A DNA stretch of 24,000 nt from Rhodothermales bacterium. GTDB taxonomy: Bacteria > Bacteroidota > Rhodothermia > Rhodothermales > BA12. This document shows, piece after piece, positions 1-7,761 of the stretch (its first letter is position 1; each line of letters starts with the position of its first letter). Where the stretch lies: the NCBI GenBank assembly GCA_963815505.1, contig CAWFGU010000001.1, forward strand, positions 12,111 to 36,110, in the 5' to 3' direction. The notes beneath the pieces are model-generated. The model saw nothing but the letters and a program-made list of their open reading frames with translations. It was not told the DNA's origin and did no database searches. Made by a program: the position numbers and the translations under genes.

Positions 1-106
1 CTGGCGCGCAAAACACGCCGATGTGTGAGCGGGCCAATGTAGACGCCATCGTCGACCCAACGCAAAAGCGCTCGGCCTTTGCGTCGCCCGCAGCCAAGGG
101 TTATGC
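1..106 (-). repeat. integron attC site, truncated by the window edge
   Basis: Carries the conserved arm ctggcgcgcaaaacacgcc...gcctttgcgtcgcccgcagccaagg and ends in GTTATGC at 100-106. It is collinear with the 10 other copies; the left core lies off-window. Confidence 0.8.
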
Positions 107-159
107 GGCCGCAAAAAAAAGCCCCTCTAACACTTTTTTATCGCGCTAGGGTGCTTGAG

Positions 160-253
160 TGGCGGTAGGGGACTCGAACCCCTACGAGCCGAAGGCTCAA
201 CTCGGATTTTCTCCAATGAGCCGCGTTCTTTACCAATTCCCGCCAACCGGGGA
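160..253 (-). ncRNA. tRNA-like sequence (type II, Leu/Ser-like), non-canonical; possible pseudo-tRNA or tRNA-like ncRNA inside a cassette
   Basis: Minus strand reads CCCCGGT-TGGCGGGAATTGGTAAAGAACGCGG-CTCATTGGAGAAAATCCGAG-TTGAGCCTTCGGCTCG-TAGGGGTTCGAGTCCCCT-ACCGCCA. The T arm is perfect (AGGGG TTCGAGT CCCCT). There is a long variable arm (GAGCC TTC GGCTC) and a D arm resembling bacterial tRNA-Leu (TGGCGGAATTGGTAGACGCG). Only 4 of 7 acceptor pairs form, and no canonical 5-bp/7-nt anticodon arm can be drawn. Confidence 0.4.
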
Positions 254-369
254 TGAATCCCTGAGCACATCTTTAGAATGCGATCAGGGACAAACAAACC
301 GAGGCATTGCCTCCACACCGACCCTTTTCAGTGCATAAAGTTTTTCCCAGAAAACTGTCGTTCAAGCCC

Positions 370-492
370 GCATAACAGACAAGGCTCTGGCGCGCAAAAC
401 ACGCCGACGGGTGAAGACAGCAATGTAGACGCCGACGCTGAAACAACGCAAAAACGCTCGGCCTTTGCGTCGCCCGCAGCCCGGGGTTATGC
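370..492 (-). repeat. integron attC site
   Basis: GCATAAC at 370-376 and GTTATGC at 486-492. The conserved arms acaaggctctggcgcgcaaa and gcctttgcgtcgcccgcagcc are imperfect inverted repeats. Confidence 0.85.
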
Positions 493-639
493 GCTCAGAT
501 TTGGAAATATCTAAGCCGAAAATCCTGCCACGCGAAGATACACTAATTTCTAGCGCTATTCCATAAATCCAAACTGACAGTCACTTTTTCGTGGTCGTCT
601 CTCACATTTCTTACCTTCCGCTGGTTTTCATGGCTAAAC

Positions 640-894
640 CTATACGGATAGGGAAATAGGCCTGATTTTTGTATTGTCCATATCTAAACAATCCCAAATT
701 TCTCGCGTCATCAGTTTAGATGAATACTCTGCCTCTCTTATATTGTCGTCCATCACCTCTATTTTGTTCTCTATGTCAATAAGGGTTGCTTTTGCCGACA
801 TCAGATCACTGCGTAAAGCAGCTTGCTGATTCCACTGAAAAATCGACCAGCCCAGTAAGGTCAAAGCAACAAATAGCCAGATTGGATGGCGCAT
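640..894 (-). CDS. small membrane-anchored hypothetical protein (84 aa), integron cassette
   Basis: The ATG (complement of 892-894) lies inside the core site GTTATGC; the stop is TAG at 640-642. MRHPIWLFVALTLLGWSIF is a hydrophobic N-terminus followed by a charged helical tail. The cassette is visibly AT-richer than its flanks. The ORF-track start at 918 is a TTG inside the attC. Confidence 0.65.
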   Translation of the reverse strand: MRHPIWLFVALTLLGWSIFQWNQQAALRSDLMSAKATLIDIENKIEVMDDNIREAEYSSKLMTREIWDCLDMDNTKIRPISLSV

Positions 895-1012
895 AACAGA
901 CAAGGCTCTGGCGCGCAAAGAGCGCCGACGGTGAGCCGATTAATGTAGTCGCCATCGTCGACCCAACGCAAAAACGCTCGGCCTTTGCGTCGCCCGCAGC
1001 CAAGGGTTATGC
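891..1012 (-). repeat. integron attC site
   Basis: GCATAAC at 891-897 and GTTATGC at 1006-1012, with the same conserved arms as the other copies. Confidence 0.85.
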
Positions 1013-1037
1013 GCACACTGCGTCAGACAACCCGGCT

Positions 1038-5152: not shown

Positions 5153-5569
5153 GGCGTCACGAGCAATGATTTCTTCGATAGCTGACCGAGTATATTTCTC
5201 AGCCGGATCTACTCCTGGGTCGTCAGTACTTCGTAGGTACTCGCCGCTATCGAAGGCTGAGTAAACGTCCATGGTATACCGAGGTACGTCTAATGTGCCA
5301 TCGGCGTCAACTTCCAGCGACATGGCGATTCCCCACAAGTAGTTGGCTATGTCATCGGCGATCCAGTAGGGCAGTTTTTTACCAGCATATTCGTGTGCTA
5401 TGTGCCGCGATACCTGATCGAGAAGGTCTTGCTCCGAAAGCTTCTCTCTTTCGCGGATCGCCTCGAAGTCGCTATGGAATTGGTTTTCAATCAGATCAGA
5501 GTGCCCCTTCGGAATGCTCTCCGCAGCGCTTCGGTAATCTTCGACCAGTAACTTCACGCTCTCGGTCAT
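5147..5569 (-). CDS. hypothetical acidic protein (140 aa), integron cassette
   Basis: ATG at 5569 (MTESVKLLVEDYRSAAESIPKGHSDLIENQFHSDFEAIREREK...). The TAA stop at 5147-5149 lies inside the core GCATAAC. Composition is balanced and protein-like. No family recognised. Confidence 0.75.
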   Translation of the reverse strand: MTESVKLLVEDYRSAAESIPKGHSDLIENQFHSDFEAIREREKLSEQDLLDQVSRHIAHEYAGKKLPYWIADDIANYLWGIAMSLEVDADGTLDVPRYTMDVYSAFDSGEYLRSTDDPGVDPAEKYTRSAIEEIIARDAA

Positions 5570-5575
5570 AAGCCG

Positions 5576-5792
5576 GCATAACAGACAAGGCTCTGGCGCG
5601 CAGAGCGGTGAAGGGTGAACGTGCTCAGGATAGCACCACCGCCCGAGCGAAGCAAGCCGCTGGCCTCTGCGTCGCCCGCAGACAAGGCTCTGGCGCGCAA
5701 ACACGCCGACGGTGAGCGAGCAATGTAGTCGCCGACGCCGAGACAGCGCAAAAACGCTCGGCCTTTGCGTCGCCCGCAGCCAGGGGTTATGC
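5576..5792 (-). repeat. double-length hybrid attC (two attC sites fused)
   Basis: GCATAAC at 5576-5582 and a subtype II centre run up to ...gcgtcgcccgcag (5681). The sequence then continues directly with acaaggctctggcgcgcaaacacgcc, the start of a subtype I attC, ending in GTTATGC at 5786-5792. One inner R'/R'' core pair is missing. Confidence 0.75.
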
Positions 5793-6010
5793 CGCCGACG
5801 ATTGCACGAACGCGCTGAACGCCCAAGTCGAAAGCCAACGCGCCGCACCCGGCCCGACTCCGAACAGCGCCTCAGTCAAGACGCACCCGCCGAAGCCGCG
5901 AAACGAACAGCGCCACCGGAAACACCGACCGAGCCAACCGCCACGGAAGCGACCACAAACACCAATGCCGAGCCGCCACGAACCGCGCGCTTCCCGGCTA
6001 CCGACAGGCG
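5793..6010 (-). other. ORF-poor cassette body, compositionally related paralog 3 of 3
   Basis: Same C/A-rich plus-strand composition as the other two. A minus-strand frame is open exactly from the core ATG (6012-6014) to the core TAA (5787-5789), giving a 75-aa W/R/G/F-rich product of doubtful reality. Confidence 0.4.
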
Positions 6011-6130
6011 GCATAACAGACAAGGCTCTGGCGCGCAAATGCGCGGGAGTGTGAGCGGGCAATGTAGTCGCCGAGCGCCGATCAGCGCAAAAACGCCCGC
6101 CTTTGCGTCGCCCGCAGCCAAGGGTTATGC
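6011..6130 (-). repeat. integron attC site
   Basis: GCATAAC at 6011-6017 and GTTATGC at 6124-6130, with conserved arms. Confidence 0.85.
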
Positions 6131-6558
6131 CGCTGTGCTTCGAGCTTCAACTACTGAACCGAGACCGTGGCACCTGTCGCAGACGCTGTTCGCTGCTCCG
6201 TCGACGCGGTACAAGTCGAACAGGCAGTGACTCGCGCCGAGCGTCGGCGGTTGAGTAGGTCAAGTCTCCGGTACTCCGCGTCGAAGCTGCTCACCTGCTC
6301 CGCAAGAGGCTCCGTTCACCAGAGGCAACGATCAAGAGTCAGTGCCATCTGGGGCGGTGTCGTTGGCAAGCACGCTGATCACAACTGATTGACCGCGAGC
6401 AACTTGGGCACTGATCAATCGTTGACGGCGTAAGCCGCTGTCAAGTATGGATATCGTCGTTCGAGTCGCAGGCTGTGAGCGGCAGAACGATTAGTCAGCC
6501 AGAGCAGCGAGACTACTACAGCGCATGATCTGATTCGGCGAAGCCTGCCGACGAAGCG

Positions 6559-6724
6559 GCATAACCAGTAATTGTGAGGACGGCAGACTGTTATTCCGGC
6601 CCGCCGTCCGGGTAACGGAGAGCAGGATACGACGCAACTCCGGCAAAGACAACGGCTAGACCCCGCCCGGCGAGAACGCATACCGGACGCCGTCCGGATA
6701 AACAGTTTTCCACAGGGGTTATGC
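6559..6724 (-). promoter_or_regulatory. candidate attI region (crossover core GTTATGC on the minus strand at 6559-6565), probably with the divergent intI and cassette promoters
   Basis: This is the last core site before intI. It lacks the conserved attC arms. An inverted core, GTTATGC at 6718-6724, overlaps the intI ATG. There is an internal imperfect inverted repeat, ctgttattccgg (6588-6599) with ccggataaacag (6694-6705). Confidence 0.45.
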
Positions 6725-7761
6725 CAGACGATCTAGCGTGTCTAAAAGGGCAACTCGCCTCCTTTTCCGTGCCCGACGACGCCCCACGCCCCCGCCTGCT
6801 GCACGCCCTCACCAGCGCCTGCCGACGCCGAGGATACAGCCTACACACCGAGCGCGCCTACGCCCTCTGGACCCGCCGCCTCGTCCACTTCCACCAGCGC
6901 CGAGTGGGACGCGCCGTCCACCCACTCGACATGGACGAGGCCGACGTATCCGCTTTCCTGTCGCACCTCGCCGTCGAACGCAACGTCGCCGCGGCCACCC
7001 AGCGGCAGGCACTCTGCGCGCTCGTCTTCCTGTTCACCCACGTGCTCCATCGCCCCCTCGCCGTACTCGACGTGACGCGCGCCAGACGACCCCGACGCCT
7101 GCCCGCCGTCCTCTCGGTCGCCGATACGGGACGCCTCCTCGCCGCACTCACCCACCCGACCGCCGATCTCATCGCCCGCCTGCTCTACGGGTCCGGCCTG
7201 CGTCTGAGCGAGGCGCTGCGCCTGCGCGTCAAAGACCTCGACTTCGACCGGCTCTCCCTCACCGTTCGCGACGGAAAGGGCGCCAAGGACCGCCTCACCG
7301 TCCTGCCGCGGCCACTCGTCGAGCCACTACGCAAGCAGATCGACCGCGCACTCGAACGCCACCGACGCGACCGGACCGACGGCATCGCGGGCGTCTACCT
7401 GCCCCACGCCCTCGCCCGCAAATACCCGTCGGCCCCACTCGAAGCAGCGTGGCAGTGGGTCTTTCCCTCGCCCACCCTCTCCGTCGACCCGCGCGCCCAC
7501 GTCACGCGCCGACACCACGTCTCCGACACGCTCGTCCAGAAGGCCGTCAAGCGCGCCGCCGCCGGATGCGGACTCCGTCTCCGCGTCACGCCGCACACCC
7601 TGCGCCACTGCTTTGCGACGCACCTGCTCGAATCGGGGACCGACATCCGCACGGTTCAGAGCCTGCTCGGGCACGCCTCCATCAAGACGACGCAGATCTA
7701 CCTCCACGTCACCCAGAGCGCCGTCGCCGCCGTCAGCCCACTCGAACGCCTCGCAGCCTGA
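6721..7761 (+). CDS. intI: integron integrase IntI (tyrosine recombinase, 346 aa)
   Basis: Collinear with remembered IntI1: [62 protein letters not shown] and [16 protein letters not shown], so the R, K, HxxR, H and Y catalytic residues are present. It also has the IntI-specific insertion [41 protein letters not shown] (about nt 7390-7518). Confidence 0.95.
   Translation: [346 protein letters not shown]

Follow-up and report, generated by a model that had tools for sequence, protein, structure and literature searches.

Does a run of palindromic repeats lying beside a tyrosine recombinase gene in a Rhodothermales bacterium constitute a complete integron, and, if so, is this integron of the sedentary chromosomal kind? 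We addressed this question with a 24-kb stretch of the genome, hereafter called the window, in which an integrase gene (intI) is preceded by an array of attC recombination sites. The parts that make up a complete integron, namely intI, an adjacent attI site, and at least one attC in the proper orientation, are all found in the window. The locus is very probably a complete chromosomal integron, and it appears to be intact. By every criterion that can be tested, it would work like the superintegron of Vibrio cholerae and other sedentary chromosomal integrons. The array lies upstream of intI and is divergent from it, its attC units all reside on one strand, and the window includes at least 12 cassettes and 13 attC units. 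The array runs leftwards past the edge of the window, and its size as given here is a lower bound.

The integrase is encoded by an intact gene for 346 amino acids (6721–7761, + strand; TIGR02249, PF00589, PF13495). Its product matches the NCBIfam model for ‘integron integrase’ (TIGR02249) with a score of 393.6 bits, where the cut-off is 265, over profile positions 2 to 315 of 315, and scores far under the respective cut-offs of the XerC, XerD, and XerA models. Pfam identifies the catalytic domain PF00589 (E = 2.5e-35) and an N-terminal SAM-like domain. The best match in the PDB is the V. cholerae integrase VchIntIA (2a3v; E = 5e-78, residues 33–344 aligned). In this alignment, the motifs of the window protein that hold the tyrosine-recombinase residues (R, K, HxxR, H, Y), IYLHV among them, coincide with those of VchIntIA, and the IntI-specific segment that contacts extrahelical bases is aligned without a gap. 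The TIGR02249 score, the Xer scores below cut-off, and the VchIntIA alignment therefore place this protein in the IntI family. A first-pass annotation of the window had claimed the presence of all tyrosine-recombinase catalytic motifs and of the IntI-specific insertion, and had named the lack of the latter domain as a reason to abandon its reading. The claim is borne out by TIGR02249, PF00589, and the 2a3v alignment, wherein the domain is present and ungapped against VchIntIA.

The repeats that form the array were located by several means. A conserved 12-mer from one arm, TGCGTCGCCCGC, when sought with no more than one mismatch, gives 12 matches in the window, all on the + strand and all within positions 1 to 6130. 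Chance alone would give approximately 0.89 matches, and 12 were not reached in any of 100 shuffled sequences. Repeat finding in the window yields the same repeat families. In addition, a covariance model (CM) built from ten window sites recovers all of the window attC sites with scores of 89 to 135 bits, and the remaining 17.9 kb yield no credible match. A weak match at 11053–11160 (18 bits) was rejected as an attC, as it lacks R boxes and lies inside a coding region.

Each site is named here for the cassette to which it belongs (A through L from left to right), and all are read on the + strand. The site of cassette A (1–106; 100 bits, model positions 18–122) has its 5′ end cut by the edge of the window. 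It is followed by the sites of cassettes B (370–492; 134.5 bits), C (891–1012; 131.8 bits), D (1455–1576; 110.5 bits), and E (2005–2126; 114.1 bits). The site of cassette F (2401–2521; 88.7 bits) is a divergent form of 121 nt with the boxes GCAGAAC and GTTATGC. Then come the sites of cassettes G (2759–2876; 111.6 bits), H (3956–4077; 130.4 bits, with boxes ACATAAC and GTTATAC), I (4649–4767; 121.1 bits, with the 5′ box GTATAAC), and J (5033–5152; 131.9 bits), a composite double site of 217 nt (5576 to approximately 5680, fused to approximately 5678 to 5792), and the site of cassette L, recognized by both the CM (125.9 bits) and its fold (6011–6130). The trinucleotides AAC and GTT are invariant in all complete window sites.

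The first-pass annotation had described 11 near-identical repeats. The places it gave were right, and the count rises to 13 units, with the double site comprising two of them and the divergent site at 2401–2521 having been missed. The GCAGAAC at position 2401 had been used only as a core, when in fact it is the start of the divergent attC. ‘Near-identical’ was likewise an overstatement, in that pairwise identity averages 73% over the sites, or 79% if the divergent one is set aside, and differs by part of the site, with 95% in the 5′ arm, 91% in the 3′ arm, and 66% in the centre. The spacing claimed for the segments between sites, 218 to about 1080 bp, agrees with our measurement of 218 to 1079 bp.

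The structure of the composite site is informative about its origin. Its first unit is normal as far as ...GCGTCGCCCGCAG, which is followed directly by ACAAGGCTCTGG... of the second unit, such that the first unit lacks its 3′ R box, the second lacks its 5′ R box, and the cassette that lay between them is missing. The junction falls in a CAG that is common to both arms (CAG-CCAAGG and CAG-ACAAGG), and the outer R boxes of the composite (5576–5792) still pair. Recombination by IntI would be expected to leave a single hybrid site, and therefore the composite attC may instead have arisen by a microhomology deletion of one cassette, or by slippage.

Recognition of attC by its integrase depends on the folded form of one DNA strand. 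The bottom strand carries 5′-RYYYAAC-3′ in its R′ box and has extrahelical bases on the arm opposite AAC, where the first of these bases, usually G, is at position 16, the last, a conserved T, is at position 23 or 24, and a 6-bp stem separates them (PMC5027507). Each complete site in the window folds alike as a single strand in both minimum free energy and consensus folds, with a 7-bp R box (GCATAAC/GTTATGC) and then a spacer that is unpaired over 6 nt on one side and 4 nt on the other. Two unpaired bases, C and T, lie in the 3′ arm of the + strand, and the stem also has one T·C mismatch. By our own count from the + strand 3′ end, the extrahelical C is at position 16 and the T at position 23, and six positions of stem separate the two. 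These bulges are on the arm opposite AAC, and therefore the + strand is assigned as the recombining bottom strand and the − strand as the coding strand of the cassettes. This assignment agrees with two independent facts, which are that intI is located to the right and is divergent, and that eight of the nine cassettes with a plausible open reading frame (ORF) code on the − strand. Thus, folding of the bottom strands, which the first-pass annotation had proposed as a check, does reveal attC hairpins with extrahelical bases opposite AAC.

The attC hairpin structure is under selection. In an alignment of 95 attC sites of this family, of which 92 are distinct, taken both from the window and from related loci, standard pairs make up 96.6% of the cells. 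Changes on both sides occur in 15 of the 22 pairs, compared to 5.5 ± 1.4 in column shuffles (none of 500 was as high) and four to six pairs in controls wherein the partner column was slid. Fitting the alignment to the model gives the structure some advantage; the slid controls make the signal hard to dismiss. The helix formed by the L box and stem is 98.6% paired, and among the 92 distinct sites a compensatory change is evident in 12 of its 15 pairs. Even the divergent attC at 2401–2521 maintains the hairpin and the same bulge pattern through compensatory changes.

Core variants had been noted at first pass to covary across the coding segments. For each inter-site segment, we took 10 nt at one end, consisting of the 7-nt box and the 3 nt beyond it, and compared them with the reverse-complemented 10 nt from the opposite end. 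The ends of the window cassettes match at a mean of 9.58 of 10 positions, with eight of the 12 being perfect over 10 nt, and so the covariation is real and stronger than had been claimed. Random re-pairing of the window ends gives 8.19 ± 0.29, and none of 10,000 trials reached the observed mean. The two boxes of one physical attC match perfectly in only one of 11 cases. Among all loci, 52 of 79 cassettes are perfect, compared to a mean of 10.2 and a maximum of 21 in permutations. The integron model predicts such a pattern: after crossover at G|TT, the final six bases of an R′ box stay with the cassette that follows, and the ends that complement each other are accordingly those of one cassette rather than those of one physical site. 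This footprint is strong evidence that the segments were circularisable units, and possibly they still are.

The position of attI was mapped by aligning the region upstream of intI from six loci, which are the window and L015, L013, L014, L003, and L010. Relative to the window, the intI/attI DNA of L015 is 86% identical (over window positions 6550–7745), and the IntI proteins are 77% identical for L013 and L014, 63% for L003, and 57% for L010. In all six loci, similarity starts exactly at AAC-CAGT(A/G)ATTG upstream of intI. The six bases preceding AAC vary by locus (GCGGCATAA, GCCGTATAA, GCGGTAGAA, and others), and everything farther to the left is unrelated. Given this sharp start, the attI crossover is therefore placed at GCATAA|C (6559–6565 on the + strand, or GTTATGC on the cassette strand). 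The attI site as a whole is annotated at 6559–6640 on the − strand, with an outer limit that is inferred. On the integrase side of the crossover are several conserved boxes (CCAGTAATTGTGAGG, TGTTAT, G(G/A)TAAC, and CAGAATACG), which may be further binding sites for IntI. Each of the six platforms carries a different first cassette, and that of the window has a 10-nt end that complements the attC of the same cassette. Metagenome matches to the attI motif GCATAACCAGTRATTGTGMGG comprise two contigs with neither IntI nor attC, which were set aside as chance matches.

A separate element, GGGGTTATGCC at 6714–6724, overlaps the intI start codon and resembles the 3′ end of an attC. Four of six relatives have it as GGGGTTA(T/C)(G/A)CC, and in two of these, L013 and L014, its position is not that of the start codon. 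This sequence may therefore be a conserved DNA element beyond its role as start-codon context.

To establish where else this attC family occurs, one genome per species was scanned with a two-arm attC pattern. Matches were found only in metagenome-assembled genomes (MAGs) of Rhodothermales, specifically CAWJEJ01 (two contigs), CAWBZG01, and CAXBBB01, and the IntI proteins of the scanned relatives are 63% and 57% identical to that of the window. The CM finds approximately 80 sites in the related loci, always in tandem and with one orientation per array, and the orientation of the array relative to intI is the same in L003, L010, L013, and L014. A scatter of the same repeat through the genome, away from any integrase, had been named at first pass as an outcome that would refute its reading; in the genome collection the family is present only in tandem unidirectional arrays. 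The array of L014 is interrupted by an IS110-family transposase and a large histidine kinase (7276–8223).

The most informative relative is the MAG MFD03250.bin.1.183 (CAWJEJ01), which holds approximately 70 sites of the same attC family in eight 8-kb loci (on two contigs, with two of the loci overlapping). It shares with the window the same attI motif, the same families of gene-less cassettes, and one cassette that is 95% identical, whereas its IntI is only 63% identical and its cassette content is otherwise different. On contig 3 of this assembly, the array adjoins intI. Contig 1 has a larger array that is without an integrase in the stretches fetched, and is in this sense like a cluster of attC sites lacking an integron integrase (CALIN). 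A cassette together with its attC is 99.7% identical between these two contigs (L007 6294–6944 and L009 5321–5970), which suggests cassette exchange or duplication between the intI-bearing and the integrase-less arrays.

How such a locus would function can be proposed from the established integron model, from which the recombination steps are taken. From intI (6721–7761, + strand), with the attI crossover located about 155 bp upstream of the start codon, the cassettes extend leftwards on the − strand, and each ends in an attC of approximately 120 nt. The + strand of an attC, which is the predicted bottom strand, would fold when single-stranded into a hairpin made of the 7-bp R box, the 6/4-nt unpaired spacer, the L-box stem, and the two extrahelical bases (C16 and T23 from the 3′ end). 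IntI would recognize this hairpin and cleave at AA|C. Cassettes would be excised as circles by attC × attC recombination and reinserted by attI × attC recombination. A promoter on the integrase side would read the − strand cassette genes, and a ParE-type toxin-antitoxin cassette probably helps to stabilize the array.

Several observations weigh against the conclusion that this is a complete and intact chromosomal integron. The first extrahelical base is C, where G is usual (PMC5027507), and the cores GCATAAC/GTTATGC depart at one position from the RYYYAAC/GTTRRRY purine/pyrimidine consensus. Searches of the window with Rfam at gathering and permissive thresholds returned no attC-like or other family, although Rfam 15 holds no attC family; one match to an lncRNA was set aside as obviously spurious. 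Around attI and in the cassettes, no promoter (Pc) scored above shuffled expectation with sigma-70 or Bacteroidetes-type −7 motifs, in scans that do not cover the promoter rules of this lineage. Terminator scans likewise gave nothing above shuffled expectation. The first cassette has no intact ORF and one attC pair has apparently been hit by a deletion that is not the work of the integrase, such that some decay is present, and the related locus L013 encodes a Rep3-family replication initiator 2 kb downstream of intI (8575–9651 in its coordinates). Some of these features would be expected of a fossil, that is, a real platform and array in which recombination has been lost and the repeats are inherited vertically as a static region. 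A first cassette that is apparently pseudogenised, a composite double attC made without IntI, the gene-less state of a quarter of the cassettes, and the failure to find Pc all fit such a history. We nevertheless consider it unlikely, given that IntI is full-length with all of its motifs and that the R-box ends still match cassette by cassette. There are also the six attI sites with six different first cassettes, including that of the relative whose intI/attI DNA is 86% identical. Different first cassettes at a conserved attI imply turnover at attI, and it would therefore seem that cassettes have been replaced there since the divergence of this relative.

The possibility that the integron is mobile, or is carried by a plasmid or chromid rather than being a sedentary part of the chromosome, draws on its surroundings. 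Similarity to the 86%-identical relative stops exactly at the intI stop codon, the Rep3 initiator gene of L013 is near intI, and in the window intI is followed by an iteron-like array with a 21-bp phase. However, the length (~120 nt) and homogeneity of the attC sites resemble those of sedentary integrons, transposition and resistance genes are absent, and the source contig, on which a protein 100% identical to the window IntI is recorded, is 192 kb in length. Moreover, the right flank encodes a secretin, a T2SSE-type ATPase, and a T2SSF platform protein, which are pilus/secretion genes, and has the same high GC content (62–72%, versus 42–70% for the cassettes); this secretion-gene flank at host GC would support a chromosomal setting. 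Homogeneous attC arms and a housekeeping flank point to a sedentary chromosomal integron, and we regard a mobile or plasmid-borne one as very improbable. A coincidental meeting of generic palindromic elements, such as repetitive extragenic palindromes (REP) or miniature inverted-repeat transposable elements (MITE), with a tyrosine recombinase could account for imperfect palindromes of ~120 nt with conserved arms. This explanation is effectively refuted by the single orientation of the repeats in one array that abuts intI, the bulges on the arm opposite AAC as in attC bottom strands, the restriction of the family to arrays in related genomes, and the cassette-wise complementarity of the ends, which is not expected for REP or MITE.

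A complete and probably sedentary chromosomal integron remains the preferred reading, and among the systems that it closely resembles is the V. cholerae superintegron, with VchIntIA and its V. cholerae repeats (VCR). Both are arrays of long (~120–130 nt), homogeneous attC sites that are divergent from intI, both hold cassettes mostly of unknown function along with toxin-antitoxin and gene-less cassettes, and the window IntI aligns over its full length to VchIntIA (E = 5e-78). In contrast, the attC sequence is unrelated to VCR, the first extrahelical base is C rather than G, and the host belongs to the Rhodothermales and not to the Gammaproteobacteria. Whereas VCR2 has three extrahelical bases, the window sites have two, and these share their positions (16 and 23) with those of attCaadA7 (PMC5027507).

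Closer in phylogeny, Salinibacter ruber M1 is reported to hold the first complete integron in Bacteroidetes proper among complete genomes, and it is the single such example that the IntegronFinder 2.0 survey names for this lineage (PMC9024848). That integron is likewise complete and from the same order, and is compared here through its published description. The genome note for Rubricoccus marinus also mentions ‘integron’ genes called by RAST (PMC5609423). Among protein matches, the nearest named relative of the window integrase is the IntI of a Salinivenus MAG. The identity to this protein is only 56%, and therefore the locus appears to represent a lineage distinct from that of S. ruber M1.

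The element is of an ordinary kind that IntegronFinder would be expected to detect, in a lineage where integrons are rare and few have been described. It departs only modestly from the usual, in having C at the first extrahelical position, two attC units fused into one site, and an abundant gene-less cassette family. Most work on integrons has dealt with Proteobacteria, and there is little documentation from Bacteroidota/Rhodothermota. What the locus contributes is a platform with clear limits, in which intI is present and attI has been mapped by comparison, together with an attC family whose extrahelical pair is C/T and a recurring family of gene-less cassettes. Related MAGs with dozens of sites of the same family offer material for testing in a distant phylum the rules of attC recognition known from Vibrio and class 1 integrons. 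The current picture of integrons is unchanged by this locus.

The gene-less cassettes of the window are E, I, and K, all annotated on the − strand. Cassette E (2127–2400) is T-depleted and has the ends GTTCTGCCGC and GCGGCAGAAC, cassette I (4768–5032) is T-depleted and belongs to the same family as cassette E, and cassette K (5793–6010) has only 5% T on the + strand. Together they represent two related families that recur in the related MAG, where there are 12 relatives, such that the group makes up 15 of the 78 inter-attC segments examined (window, L001, L002, L003, L004, L005, and L009). Their GC content is 66–71%, and T accounts for only 5–6% of the + (bottom) strand, compared to 18–31% in other cassettes. 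It is cassette K that is 95% identical to a cassette of this MAG (locus L005), whose IntI is far less similar.

What these cassettes might be was approached by considering several candidate identities. Small-protein genes were rejected, since close pairs differ by indels of 1 and 2 nt and no frame has a conserved start. Decayed attC material was also rejected, as a search of E, I, and K with an attC profile (nhmmer) gave no match. Structured RNAs find no support in folding z-scores of −0.81, +1.30, and −0.56, and no sigma-70-like promoter match was found in these cassettes. Gene-less promoter cassettes in the superintegrons of Vibrionaceae (PMC11014356) are the closest precedent, being likewise without ORFs and interspersed in a sedentary array. 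Unlike those (PMC11014356), the three cassettes here form a recurrent family with high GC content, little T, and no match to a sigma-70-like promoter. We can suggest only tentatively, and with more doubt than confidence, that they constitute a previously undescribed family of functional non-coding integron cassettes that has been amplified by the array. They could act as promoters, insulators, or anti-termination elements, or they might prevent the bottom strand from folding near attC sites. Otherwise, they may be decayed genes.

The remaining cassettes, also annotated on the − strand, are varied, and a recognizable protein family is present in only two. This outcome agrees with the first-pass statement that most cassette products have none. 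Cassette G (2877–3955) encodes a WG-repeat protein of 366 amino acids with a lipoprotein-like leader (ORF 2883–3983), which matches PF14903 with E = 1.7e-58 over six repeats. Cassette H (4078–4648) carries a toxin-antitoxin pair, of which the ParE/RelE toxin (4089–4379) matches PF05016 (E = 2.6e-17) and, weakly, TIGR02385. The overlapping upstream ORF (4372–4620) is presumed from its position to be the antitoxin.

Four other cassettes have ORFs of 84 to 141 amino acids that match no family in Pfam, NCBIfam, or PADLOC. Cassette B (493–890) encodes a small membrane-anchored protein (640–894), and cassette C (1013–1454) a lipoprotein-like protein of 132 amino acids (1038–1436) with only a weak match to a signal-peptide region. 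Cassettes D (1577–2004; ORF 1571–1963 or longer) and J (5153–5575; 141 amino acids, ORF 5147–5572) have products of no known family. In cassette F (2522–2758), the only plausible ORF is Cys-rich and on the opposite (+) strand, extends from 2452 or 2518 to 2754, starts inside the attC, and has no family match. PADLOC found no defence-system match in any of the eight cassette proteins. The attC core boxes also supply translation signals to some of these genes. GTTATGC (891–897) provides the ATG with which the cassette B ORF begins, and GCATAAC provides the TAA stop codons of the cassette D and J ORFs (1570–1576 and 5146–5152), inside the R″ box.

Two more cassettes lack an intact gene. The first cassette of the array, L (6131–6558), has no intact ORF, and among its short ORFs are fragments (for example, VVISVLANDTAPDGTDS) resembling a cadherin-like domain broken by frameshifts, as might be left by a decayed gene. 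Cassette A (107–369) has no credible ORF and includes a tRNA-like remnant (159–246, − strand) with a good T arm (GGGGTTCGAGTCCCC), six of seven acceptor-stem pairs, and a variable arm, but without a D arm or a normal anticodon loop. Its match to the Rfam tRNA-Sec family reaches 22.8 bits (E = 0.54), under the gathering score of 47, and ARAGORN found no tRNA in the window, including at this remnant.

Beyond the integron, the DNA that follows intI has features of its own. Starting from the intI stop codon, the region 7758–8009 holds twelve units in exact 21-bp phase with the core CCC(A/G)TCCGC. Eleven of these contain exact matches to CRTCCGC (7764, 7785, 7806, 7827, 7848, 7890, 7911, 7932, 7953, 7974, and 7995), and the unit at 7863 is degenerate. 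The array looks iteron- or operator-like, and ends 22 bp before the ATG of a gene for 216 amino acids (8031–8681) with no Pfam match above threshold. No such array follows intI in L013, L014, or L015.

Farther to the right, a DUF559 endonuclease-like gene (approximately 8940–9303; PF04480, E = 1.5e-27) lies within 8686–9494 and is bracketed by direct repeats. These occur as two pairs (8686–8742 with 9315–9371, and 8854–8931 with 9417–9494) that are 93–95% identical. The repeats hold hairpins such as CCTCCCCTTGAAAAGGGGAGG, and one copy has a tandem repeat of a 23-bp unit present 4.8 times (8754–8863).

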